Of a stretch of 64,000 nt of DNA, positions 47,522 through 62,479 are shown piece by piece. The position numbers and the translations under genes were made by a program. Below the pieces are notes generated by a model. It was not told the DNA's origin, did not search any database, and saw nothing but the letters and a program-made list of their open reading frames with translations. Each line of letters begins with the position of its first letter. Within the stretch, counting starts at the first letter, position 1. Origin of the DNA: Escherichia coli (GTDB taxonomy: Bacteria; Pseudomonadota; Gammaproteobacteria; Enterobacterales; Enterobacteriaceae); NCBI RefSeq assembly GCF_041248615.1, contig NZ_CP158426.1. One strand, 5' to 3'.

Positions 47522-47808
47522 TAATTATATATAATTACTCGCACAGAGTTACAGTATTGCAAGAAATATATCTAGCATATAAAGTCGCCGCCAGTAAAGA
47601 TAAAGTACTGTGTAATCCTTCCTCCCATATAGGGGTAAAAACTTAGCATCCAGTGCCCTCGACTTAATTTTTAGTATTTTCTCTGTGAAGTGACACTTCG
47701 TAGGATTCAGTTCATGTTTACCAGAAAAAAGGTGGTCATTCTGGTGGTCTTGACAATCTCGATTTTTTGTTTTAGCTTTCCAATCAGCCAATTAATGGCT
47801 ACGGCGAT

Positions 47809-47828
47809 CCCAGTCAGAGGAGCCAAAT
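47809..47828 (+). repeat. island-distal direct repeat (attR-type copy of asnW 3' end)
   Basis: ccagtcagaggagccaaatt identical to tRNA 3' end at 37258-37277. Confidence 0.8.
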
Positions 47829-48276
47829 TTTAGTTTTGAGACATCTCTATGAGTCTCAAGACAGTTAAAAAATAAAAATTATTTTTACCCGGTTACCTTG
47901 TAAAAAAGTGACCGGGTTTTTTGATTTCTGTGTTTCGTGCGCTTAATCGAGTCTCACGCTTCAGTGAGCAAATTGCCCCCCAACAGACATCACGATTCGC
48001 AAGGTCAAAAACTTCGTTCCGTGAAGTACCGTACAAAGGTATAGAGAAAAATACCTTATGCTGGATGTCGCTGTCGCGTTTTTATCGGGAAACTATGCGT
48101 AATTGCCACTTTGCCTTCTGTAATCAGAAAAAGAAGAACTGGAATTTTAATAAATATTATTTCTCTGGGAATGGGGATTTTTTATAATCAATATGACGAG
48201 TTGAACATTATATTTTTATAATGATTATATGAGATTAAAGAAATCTGCCATAAAGACAGATTTCTTTAAAATATAA

Positions 48277-48993
48277 TTAGAGATTTGCGACGTTATGATA
48301 AACTTTTTGTACATCGTCGTCATCTTCAAGGGCATCAACAAGCCCTTCAAAGATTTCTAAATCTTCTGGGGAAAGCTCAACTTCAGATTGAGCAATCATT
48401 TCTAATTCTGTTGTTGAGAACTCAGTGATTCCAGCTGCTTTTAGAGCCGCGATTCCTTTATGAAGGTCAGTAGGTTCAGTATAAATAACAATATTACCTT
48501 CTTCTTCAGTTACATCACGAACATCAACTTCAGCTTCAAGTAAAATTTCAAAAATATGGTCAGGGTCTGTTCCTTTAAATACAATCACACCCGTATTGTC
48601 AAACATATAGCTGACAGAACCTGCCGCTCCGATATTGCCGCCTTTTTTATTGAAAATTGTGCGAACGTTAGCAATCGTACGGTTAACATTGGAAGTCAAG
48701 GTCTCAGCGATAATCATTGAGCCATTAGGACCAAAGCCTTCATAACGGCCCTGCACGAACGTTTCATCTCCGCCGCCTTTGGCTTTATCAATTGCTTTAT
48801 CAATAACATGCTTTGGAACTTGTGCCTGCTTTGCTCGTTCAATAACGAATTTTAAAGATGTGTTTAATTCTGGATCGGGTTCACCTTGTTTGGCAGCGGC
48901 ATAGATTTCTACACCGAATTTTGCATAAATTTTAGACGTCGCACCGTCTTTAGCCGTTTTTTTAGCAACAATATTGGCCCATTTACGTCCCAC
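48277..48993 (-). CDS. yeeN: YebC/PmpR-family transcriptional regulator
   Basis: 238-aa [45 protein letters not shown]... Confidence 0.9.
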
Positions 48994-49335
48994 TGGAATG
49001 ATCTCCTCGAAAATTTATTTACATTACTGGTAAATCGTTAACATGTGTTAATTCGGCATATTATATCATAACAGGAAAAATCTCGTCTATTAGAAATAAA
49101 AATATTCTAAAGTCATAATCTTATATTTAATTTCATAAAAAATTATATTGTTGGCGGGATTTTTTATAATTGTGTTTTGAAAGCATACTTGCTTTTAATA
49201 TGTGGGAATTATTAAGACGATAATAAAACTCGCATCTGTCCAAGAAAGCAAACAGCCCGCGTTTATTGCAGGCTATTTGCCAGATGTCTTACTTACTCCT
49301 TCACATCTATTTCTGATAAGAAGGTTCAGAACTTA

Positions 49336-59800: not shown

Positions 59801-61802
59801 CCTTAACAGGTTTGTCATTTTCATCTCTCAGTTCTACCGTCACCTCGATAGGATTGCCGGAGAGATAACGGTCCTTATCAATTTTAATTGACGAGTGAGT
59901 TCGGGATGACGAAACAGAAATGATATTCACCACGGCGGGGGCTTTAGCCGCATCCACACCGTTCAGCTGTGGCATCAGCGTTAGCGTGCCAGACATCGCT
60001 CCTGTGGTCAGGACTTGGGTATAGCTTCCGTCACCATTATCTTTCCAGTCAGAAAGGGTGATGTCCTGAACACCTTCGTGACGCGTCGAGAGCATCAGCC
60101 CGATAACAGGATTACCTGCTGCATCATGAGCAATAAAAGTCAGTGTGGCGGTTGAATGGGAATCCGCACTCAATGTTTGGGTACTTAACGATACCGAGGA
60201 ATCTTTCTGGCTTAGCGCAGGTGCCTGAACGACCACCATGCTTTGTTCACGATTCGAAAAATTGCCTTTGACATCTTCAGCGGTGACTTCAATCGGCCAG
60301 GTGTTATCGGTTTCTGGCGTACTGGTGAACCGGTACGGCGGCAGGGTAACCAGAATATCTTTACCCGTTGTGACCACTTTACCACCGGCAGCTTCCAGAG
60401 CGGTGGCTTCGACGTTATAGCCTTTCAGGGCATATTTGGTTTGTAGCGACGAAACCAGTGATTTCACTTCTCCTGACTTCCCTGTCACGGGGTCTGTCAG
60501 GGTCAGGCGAACCAGTTCTTTTTTGCGATATTCCAGAACGATGTTGTTGTTGCGATCCACCAGATCATAACGGCTGCCTGCAAGGCTACGCCGTGCAGCG
60601 ACTTCGTTCGGGTCAAGCTGTTTCTGCATTGCGCTGCCAGGTTGCCAGGTAAAATCGACGGCAAAACGGGTGTCATTTTCACCCTGTTTACCCTGGCGTT
60701 GCTCCGCGCTGAAGGTCATCAGCGGGAAGGGGGTATAGTTAAGTCCAGCGGTTATGGCATGAGGATTACTTTGCCGATCGTCTTTATCGAACAGGGCCAC
60801 TTCATCGCCATAATACTGTTCATAGACCAGTTTACCGCCAAGGTGCGGCCAGGCGGGTAGCCAGCCTTCTGCGCGTACATCCCAGCCATTGGCCGGGCGT
60901 GCTTCATAATCGTTGTCCAGTTCAGGTGCGCTGCGCCAGTTGGTCAGTCGCAAATAGCCGTTACTGCTTAATTTTAGATAGTCGCGCCAGTACTCTGCGC
61001 CAATGCCGGCGCGGGAGTGGTAACGGCTAAGATCGTGGTCGAAAAAGAAGTTGATGCCCGACATCCATGTGGGAGTGAAATGACGCCAACCCAAGCCGTT
61101 GTTAATCTGCGTACGCTCGTCAGTACGGTGGAGAGTATGCTGGCTGAAAAAGAGATTATCAGGCGTTTCATACCACGGATGGAGAAAATCGAACTGGGAA
61201 TTCTTCAGGCTAAAATCTTCATCCACGCCCAGCGTGATTCTTGCGGTACCGAAGCGGCTTAACCAGTCTGTCATTACCCCTGAAGCCTGAGAAGAGGCCC
61301 ATCCACGCGCCATATTTGCCGCTTGCTCGCTGTTCATATCCTCGGCGAGCAGAGACCCGATTTGCTGTGAAGTACTGGCTATCTGTTGCTCAAGGTTGCC
61401 ACTGCTATTACCCGGTGGCGGGGTTAAATTATTTTCACTAACTTGTGCCGGGACATCCAGTTCATCACCCTGGCGGACATTATCAAAACCTCGAGCAAAC
61501 GTACGAAACTGGTTGAGTTTGCGTAACTCAGCCACCGAAATACCGAAACGTTCGGCAACGCTTTGGGCCGATTCCAGCGCTCCAAGGGTGTAGGGCACCG
61601 TATTGGCATTTGCAATGGCGATTTGTGCAGGAACTTGTAGATGGGTTGCAGCGTTTATCACACCTTGTGCTGCCGCAGCCATAGGGAACGCAAGTTGAGT
61701 TACCAGGCAGATACCCGCAGTTAAGCGGCGTAGTTTAATTCCCATCCCGCATAAGATTTGTCGGTCATTTATTTCTTCTCCACTTCTCTTCTTCGTAGCC
61801 AT
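53837..61802 (-). pseudogene. yeeJ: inverse-autotransporter adhesin YeeJ (LysM + intimin/invasin beta-barrel + Big-domain array), split into three reading frames
   Basis: N-terminus MATKKRSGEEINDRQILCGMGIKLRRL; ORFs 56769-61877, 56386-56772 and 53837-56293 are consecutive Big-domain segments in three frames; frame changes near 56780-56790 and 56389-56390. Confidence 0.8.
57480..58697. repeat. two tandem ~609-bp near-identical repeat units inside yeeJ
   Basis: 57531-57830 is nearly identical to 58140-58440 (offset 609 bp = 203 codons); encoded ~200-aa blocks are near-identical. Confidence 0.85.
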
Positions 61803-62101
61803 GCTTACCTTCCCTGAACGAGCTAACATAAATGCGCCCTTTCTAGCACAGCGAAAAAAAGTAAATCCTGATAGCAATATGATTGAAAATTAATAACTTT
61901 TCGTTAAGCAGTTTTGGGTGTGAGTTGCAAGAGGGGAGACTACTGAATTACTCAAGTTTTATAATCGAGGGGAAAATGGTGATGGCGTCCATAGCAAAAC
62001 GCCCTCAACCATAAAGGTCGAGGGCGCTTAAGATGTCAAAAACCCGCTATCCGTTAAAAAGCAATGCTCAACTAAGGTCAGTGACATTGCGCTAAAAAGC
62101 G

Positions 62102-62121
62102 AATTTTTAGAATTTGGCTCC
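62102..62121 (-). repeat. inverted partial copy of tRNA-Asn 3' end (distal att repeat of a second asn-tRNA island)
   Basis: aatttggctcctctgactgg is the reverse complement of ccagtcagaggagccaaatt; no tRNA body follows. Confidence 0.75.
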
Positions 62122-62479
62122 TCTGACTGGGATCGCCGTAGCCAATAACTGGCTAATAAATAAGCTAAACCTGAATTTCCTTTCTGTCAAGACCACCAAA
62201 CAGACCACCTTAAGTTATACATGTCATTCTGACCTGCTCTCAGTTGATTAGTACACCCTGAAATTAGTAATGTCATTCATATGACCCTGACCCCAAACCC
62301 TGCTCCATTCAGAAACAGAATTCCGGCATGATACATACTCCCCCTGAACCGAGGTGGTACTGATGAAAAAAATCTCGATTCACCGAAGAGCATATTGTGT
62401 TTGCCTTGACGCAGAAGTTACCAGCATGACTCAACTTCAGCCGACTCAACCACTATCCCAAACCTCTAGGATCAGAAAC

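Follow-up and report, generated by a model that had tools for sequence, protein, structure and literature searches.

Known asn-tRNA elements and the window

ICEKp1 of Klebsiella pneumoniae and ICEEc1 of Escherichia coli ECOR31/ED1a, the latter a high-pathogenicity island (HPI) of the HPI-ICE type, are integrative and conjugative elements (ICEs) that insert at asn-tRNA genes and carry a P4-type integrase. The pks (colibactin) island and the E. coli HPI use the same four-gene asn-tRNA hotspot, integrase family and direct repeats, with different cargo. Here, we analyzed a stretch of 64,000 nucleotides of E. coli DNA (the window), identical to the E. coli NRZ14408 record NZ_LT599825.1 (window position = record position minus 2019671), in which two similar sequences face each other across the yeeN-yeeJ backbone block. 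Very probably, these are the far ends of two independent mobile elements, each inserted at the 3' end of an asn-tRNA gene, asnW (island 1) or asnT (the asnT ICE), the two genes having opposite orientations, and they are alike through a module of their family.

Much of the locus resembles ICEKp1 and ICEEc1. The target and the direct repeat (CCAGTCAGAGGAGCCAA...) are the same, the integrase gene (int) adjoins the tRNA gene on the same strand, an ICEKp1 primer lies in the int leader, and the ICEKp1 reagents align collinearly with the 3' end. The asnT ICE also shares with them a VirB-type type IV secretion system (T4SS), a Mob module and AlpA. Unlike ICEKp1 and ICEEc1, neither window element has ybt genes, the cargo of the asnT ICE differs, and island 1 lacks transfer genes and has a frameshifted integrase. 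Furthermore, the promoter switch was shown by experiment in ICEKp1 and ICEEc1, whereas for these particular copies excision and promoter activity are predicted.

The 3' ends of ICEKp1-14 are conserved, according to Liu et al. 2026 (PMC13023037). As described there, a mutation-tested sigma-70 promoter in the 3' end of ICEKp1, and also of ICEEc1, drives int once the element has been excised and its ends have met in a circle. As long as the element is integrated, transcription of int starts at the promoter of the tRNA gene, whose terminator has been moved to the distal side. The paper names Pcirc of ICEclc (Pseudomonas) as an analogue, likewise an outward promoter at the far end that drives int only after circularization. 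The family, the tRNA target (gly) and the sequence of ICEclc are unrelated to the window elements, and the likeness is one of logic only. The distal repeat has been lost from the fixed E. coli HPI (PMC8209727) but is retained in both window elements.

Two distal ends facing each other

The sequence AGCCAATTAATGGCTACGGCGATC followed by CCAGTCAGAGGAGCCAAATT occupies positions 47786-47829 (+), and its reverse complement lies at 62111-62154. The copies are identical in 42 of 44 positions, AATT trailer included, and both mismatches fall on the positions that an earlier note on this DNA had written as (a/g) and (a/t). The window holds two instances, and no more, of the 24-nt pattern AGCCARTTAWTGGCTACGGCGATC (47786-47809 (+) and 62131-62154 (-)), and 100 shuffles produced none. 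The inverted ends of about 45 bp described in that note are therefore real. Its second coordinate (~62102-62146), however, is about 8-9 nt too far left, and the repeat is longer than stated: between 47729-47832 and 62108-62211 it extends over 104 nt at 80% complementarity, with a longest perfect run of 34 nt.

The last 16 nt of tRNA-Asn, CCAGTCAGAGGAGCCA, are found five times in the window, with none expected by chance. Three occurrences belong to intact tRNA-Asn genes, and the other two (47810-47825 (+) and 62115-62130 (-)) are part of the inverted repeat. Being identical to a tRNA 3' end, the second copy could be taken to belong to an ordinary asnT gene, a case that the earlier note had itself raised against its own reading, or both copies could be ordinary backbone. 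Neither is the case: ARAGORN found no tRNA body at either copy, both copies have GGCGATC directly 5' of the core where the tRNA has GGTTCGAGT, asnT itself is 51.7 kb further along, and the 24-nt motif was not found in the K-12 region. The flanking bases, the distant asnT and the absence from K-12 rule this reading out, and it is hardly conceivable.

The comparison with K-12 also sets the exact borders of the two elements. K-12 has neither insert; its backbone 3' of asnW corresponds to the window from 47830 on, and the sequence directly 3' of its asnT corresponds to the window leftward from 62108. With the K-12 flanks resuming exactly at the window backbone, the view that both ends are distal ends of asn-tRNA-integrating elements, pointing inward toward yeeN-yeeJ, is borne out. 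The cognate tRNA and integrase that had been expected beyond 64 kb are present as well, as an intact asnT and a full-length int in NZ_LT599825.1. Island 1 is bounded by the 20-nt direct repeat CCAGTCAGAGGAGCCAAATT (37258-37277 and 47810-47829, spacing 10552), and the displaced native terminator regions of asnW and asnT lie at the two edges of the yeeN-yeeJ block. Both elements show the characters of the asn-tRNA P4-integrase family, namely a tRNA insertion with a direct repeat of 17-22 nt, a three-domain int 3' of the tRNA on the same strand, and a conserved 3' end.

Relatedness of the two elements

The integrases of the two elements are about 71% identical, and both contain the Pfam domains PF13356 (Arm-DNA-bind_3), PF22022 (Phage_int_M) and PF00589 (Phage_integrase). 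In a blastn comparison of element against element, the tRNA, leader and int aligned over 1471 nt with 72% identity, the last 101 nt aligned with 80%, and nothing else was shared. The cargo is unrelated, and the GC content is 51.6% in island 1 and 44.7% in the asnT ICE. Describing the two as related elements, as had been done before, is accurate for the integration module; the rest is unshared, and the end is family-wide.

Sharing both the tRNA-int side and the last 101 nt, the two elements might derive from a single ancestral element split in two, or one might be a recent copy of the other. Against this, each has a complete attachment site on the tRNA and int side (attL) and another at its distal side (attR), identity in the shared parts is only 72% and 80%, and cargo and GC content differ. 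Moreover, each element is found alone elsewhere, island 1 in 205 genomes and the asnT ICE in two other strains. We rejected halves or copies of one element on these grounds (separate attL and attR, low identity, unrelated cargo, independent occurrence) and regard them as extremely improbable. The comparison points to two members of one integration-module family.

A 3'-end module shared across the family

The resemblance between the two ends extends far beyond this window. A cross-genus scan with GGCGATC plus the core as query, using one genome per species, retrieved 108 genomic stretches, and the matches listed span more than 30 genera of Enterobacterales, with Yersinia pestis and Klebsiella pneumoniae among the species. 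These stretches gave 103 distinct upstream sequences, which align without gaps, and both window ends fit the resulting consensus. Exact matches in fixed columns were found for the two GGTGGTC motifs in 87% and 81% of the 103 ends, for TTGACA in 89%, TAGCTT in 78%, AGCCA in 84% and TGGC in 89%. By comparison, the mean consensus frequency per column was 67% in the 17 nt that separate TTGACA from TAGCTT, and 46% upstream of the first GGTGGTC. Upstream of the GGTGGTC pair, at columns -110 to -82 counted from the core, many family members have an additional half-conserved stretch, GCTCAAACCAGATTTATGTAACC.GCAACTATT, which both window ends lack.

Within E. coli, a homologous end is present in 816 of 5426 complete genomes, including the pks island of UTI89 and Nissle 1917, whose clbA-side end is 82% identical to the window end over 99 nt. 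At the asnT site of ATCC 8739 (locus 1-4100), directly against yeeJ, is an island that carries Rhs and has this kind of end, whereas the Rhs island of the window strain is at asnW.

Published reagents and sequences fit the same register. The ICEKp1 primer GATTGGTGGTCATTCTGGTG, the attR primer GGTTTAGCTTACTTATTAGCCAGTTATTGG and the attR/P probe CAAAGGCGATCCCAGTCAGAGGAGCCA are collinear with both window ends; the attR of the asnT ICE (62109-62211) is one mismatch away from the ICEKp1 attR primer, and an exact copy of the ICEKp1 primer GAAAAATTGGTGGTCAAATCTGGG is present in the int leader of the ICE. For an Enterobacter HPI-ICE, agttactggcaaaggcgatc is printed beside the distal repeat (Paauw et al. 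2010, Table 1, PMC2801613). A literature search for the motif strings turned up the direct repeat alone, and not GGTGGTCTTGACA. The matching ends are a conserved module of the HPI, ICEKp1, ICEEc1 and pks family and mark no special link between the two islands.

Proposed integration and expression mechanism

[quoted passage not shown] Such an integration would rebuild the tRNA gene on the integrase side (attL) and leave a 20-22-nt copy of the tRNA 3' end at the far side (attR). Because asnW and asnT point toward each other, the two attR ends would come to face each other across yeeN-yeeJ as an inverted repeat. The similarity of about 80 nt past the tRNA copy may represent the conserved 3'-end module of the P4-type-integrase family, that is, one arm of attP. 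The tandem GGTGGTC pair in it likely corresponds to arm-type integrase sites, a predicted role suggested by a similar pair in the int leader (GGTGGTC-N6-GGGGTC) and by the Arm-DNA-binding domain of both integrases.

Next to this pair, TTGACA-N17-TAGCTT (47750-47778 (+) and 62162-62190 (-)) is a candidate outward sigma-70 promoter, as its conservation suggests. It would read across the joined ends into int solely in the circular form, and would face the displaced tRNA terminator in the integrated state. A terminator scan of both ends made no call; the loops are too long for the rule.

Several points weigh against parts of this reading. A consensus promoter scanner called nothing at either end, and TAGCTT, which matches TATAAT in only three of six positions, is too weak a -10 box for its rule. 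The start published for the known promoter by Liu et al. 2026 (PMC13023037) lies 15 bp upstream of the 5' end, compared with about 25 bp predicted from the hexamers, and this difference of about 10 nt makes the hexamer assignment uncertain. The role of GGTGGTC as an integrase arm site is putative. Since the cross-genus set was chosen on GGCGATC plus the core, the conservation of those 23 nt is by construction. Finally, the integrase of island 1 is frameshifted, and its end module may be a relic without current function.

The feature is an already known attR, the 3'-end module of a well-studied family of islands, and our analysis confirms and extends the original observation. Knowledge of the direct repeats goes back to the descriptions of the HPI and pks islands. 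The value of the finding is mainly one of annotation, as it fixes precisely where two mobile elements of the E. coli asn-tRNA hotspot begin and end, and it includes an ICEKp1-type ICE without ybt, rare in E. coli, that moves between asnT and asnV. It also offers a register-fixed signature for the distal ends of this island family, GGTGGTC-N5-GGTGGTC-TTGACA-N17-TAGCTT-...-GGCGATC-core. It opens no new question, as conservation of the 3' end and its role as a promoter were reported in 2026 for ICEKp1 and ICEEc1 (PMC13023037).

Inversion of the yeeN-yeeJ block

The inverted ends had also been proposed as substrates for flipping the 14.3-kb yeeN-yeeJ block, which could take place through RecA or through an integrase acting on the two attR sites. 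The repeats are indeed real and inverted (104 nt at 80%, with the 34-nt perfect run), and the genome has an intact integrase of the cognate family. A precedent exists in the same hotspot, where Auvray et al. 2021 (PMC8209727) reported a flip of the asnW-asnU-asnV segment between inverted asn-tRNA-related repeats in B2 strains that carry pks. However, that inversion concerns the neighboring yeeO-cbl-nac segment and not yeeN-yeeJ, and in the window the yeeO-cbl-nac segment is in K-12 order. In UTI89 (locus 4001-4151), the clbA-side pks end abuts ldtA, which fits the inversion of the B2 strains.

We surveyed the 5426 complete E. coli genomes with two chimeric BLAST queries of 800 nt, requiring a coverage of at least 80%. 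The first joined yeeO-asnW to the asnT/yeeJ flank, the product of asnT x asnW or of the island 1 attL with the ICE attR, and the second joined the island 1 end to the yeeJ flank, the product of the two attR sites. Neither junction was found in any genome (0/5426 each), and the best partial matches were ordinary asnT-yeeJ junctions or related island ends at asnT. The junction between the island end and the yeeN side was kept in the best 25 of the 205 genomes with island 1, and the block is in K-12 order in the window itself. Furthermore, attR x attR differs from the attL x attR recombination by which tyrosine integrases normally excise, and a perfect run of 34 nt is close to the minimum for RecA recombination and a poorer substrate than the longer inverted tRNA copies already present in the region (asnU/asnW, 84 nt at 100%; asnV/asnW, 107 nt at 97%). 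With neither junction in the surveyed genomes and the block in K-12 order, the idea found no backing; inversion of yeeN-yeeJ is a formal possibility without support, and a very improbable one.

We give the same slight chance to a variant, in which the ICE integrase acts on inverted hybrid att pairs (island 1 attR with ICE attL, or island 1 attL with ICE attR) or mobilizes island 1, whose own int is dead, in trans. If this were true, yeeN-yeeJ together with an island would flip at low frequency, re-aiming the two convergent end promoters. Such flips might also fix the elements in position, an effect suggested for pks in B2 strains.

Content and distribution of island 1 and the asnT ICE

Island 1 is in a decayed state; its features and those of the asnT ICE are listed in Table 1. 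A tblastn search with the ICE integrase matched the int of island 1 in two frames, with 64% and 75% identity. The second, unrelated integrase fragment suggests the remains of another element nested in island 1. Besides the genes listed in the table, island 1 contains small helix-turn-helix genes and hypothetical genes. Neither the annotation nor Pfam revealed transfer genes in it, and it is therefore not an ICE. At least 80% of island 1 is present in 205 E. coli genomes.

The asnT ICE is 51.7 kb long (NZ_LT599825.1 2081802-2133526) and runs out of the window. Its conjugation genes, as annotated by RefSeq, are those of a VirB-type T4SS (VirB2-11 homologues), a coupling protein (T4CP) and MobC, and AlpA is also encoded; by this annotation it appears to have the conjugation machinery of an ICE in the strict sense. 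The cargo comprises porins, an iron-type ABC transporter, UbiD/UbiX, ABC-3C defense-like genes, a ComEC/Rec2-like gene and ArdC. The yersiniabactin genes (ybt/irp/fyuA) mark the HPI and ICEKp proper, and no ybt genes are annotated in either window element. A decayed element of the IS3 family of insertion sequences (IS) lies about 330 nt inside the distal end of the asnT ICE, and the pks island of UTI89 similarly has IS3 remnants near its end.

The asnT ICE is rare in E. coli, with its distal end found in four records. Strains 2018-06-4CC and YF-1 have the same ICE, its distal 1.9 kb being 99.7% identical, with the end against ldtA, which is the asnV site. The ICE is at asnT here and at asnV in those two strains, and therefore uses more than one asn-tRNA gene; this difference in occupancy indicates recent mobility. 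The Yersinia HPI is likewise known to use more than one asn-tRNA gene. The same applies to the pks island (PMC8209727).

Table 1. Features of the two elements and the surrounding backbone, in window coordinates unless NZ_LT599825.1 is named
Feature	Position	Strand	Basis
asnV, tRNA-Asn(GUU)	32965-33040	-	ARAGORN, K-12 spacing and neighbors
asnU, tRNA-Asn(GUU)	35374-35449	-	ARAGORN, K-12 spacing and neighbors
asnW, tRNA-Asn(GUU), with AATT trailer; attL of island 1	37198-37277 (tRNA 37198-37273)	+	ARAGORN, core matches, direct repeat
Island 1 body, 10.55 kb, GC 51.6%	37278-47809	+	annotation, Pfam, absence from K-12
asnW-int leader with GGTGGTC-N6-GGGGTC, homologous to ICEKp1-type int leader (5'-FSint)	37278-37434	+	comparison with asnT ICE leader
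Integrase pseudogene, P4-type tyrosine recombinase, one frameshift near codon 145	37435-38696	+	RefSeq 'frameshifted', tblastn, Pfam
Second integrase fragment, frameshifted, Phage_int_SAM_2 / Integrase_1, unrelated to the first	40034-40650	-	annotation, Pfam
Rhs core protein (within island 1)	42735-46916		annotation, Pfam
TPR/Sel1-like protein (within island 1)	46919-47521		annotation, Pfam
Island 1 distal end (attR)	47729-47829	+	repeat analysis, family profile, K-12 backbone from 47830
GGTGGTC pair, island 1 attR	47731-47737, 47743-47749	+	
TTGACA, island 1 attR	47750-47755	+	
TAGCTT, island 1 attR	47773-47778	+	
Palindrome AGCCAATTAATGGCT, island 1 attR	47786-47800	+	
GGCGATC, island 1 attR	47803-47809	+	
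Core/direct repeat, island 1 attR	47810-47829	+	
Backbone block, K-12 order	47830-62108	.	annotation, K-12 comparison
yeeN	48277-48993	-	annotation
amn	49336-50790	-	annotation
shiA	50892-52208	-	annotation
yeeL-like GT9	52523-53575	+	annotation
yeeJ pseudogene	53837-61802	-	annotation
asnT ICE distal end (attR)	62109-62211	-	repeat analysis, K-12 comparison
Direct repeat CCAGTCAGAGGAGCCAAATTCT, ICE attR	62109-62130	-	
GGCGATC, ICE attR	62131-62137	-	
Palindrome AGCCAGTTATTGGCT, ICE attR	62140-62154	-	
TAGCTT, ICE attR	62162-62167	-	
TTGACA, ICE attR	62185-62190	-	
GGTGGTC pair, ICE attR	62191-62197, 62203-62209	-	
asnT ICE, distal 1.9 kb	62131-64000	-	source-record annotation
Decayed IS3-family element	62488-63640	-	
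Intact ICE int	NZ_LT599825.1 2132094-2133365		source-record annotation
asnT, adjoining mtfA	NZ_LT599825.1 2133527-2133602		source-record annotation

Surrounding backbone

The window runs opposite to the K-12 map. The genes asnV, asnU and asnW were assigned by their spacing (2409 and 1824 nt) and by their neighbors ldtA, nac, cbl and yeeO, and their order is that of K-12. In the backbone block, yeeJ is annotated as frameshifted and has tandem Ig-domain repeats of 609 nt, 93% identical, at 57469-58377. The yeeL homologue is intact in the window, whereas it is a pseudogene in K-12. Further left, between tmaR and cobU, the window has a complete pdu operon (propanediol utilization microcompartment, 11511-28746) together with pocR and a cobalamin riboswitch; in K-12, this position is held by the CP4-44 prophage. 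Just past asnT and mtfA, outside the window, a lambdoid prophage with a frameshifted integrase is located at serU (NZ_LT599825.1 2134594-2147000).

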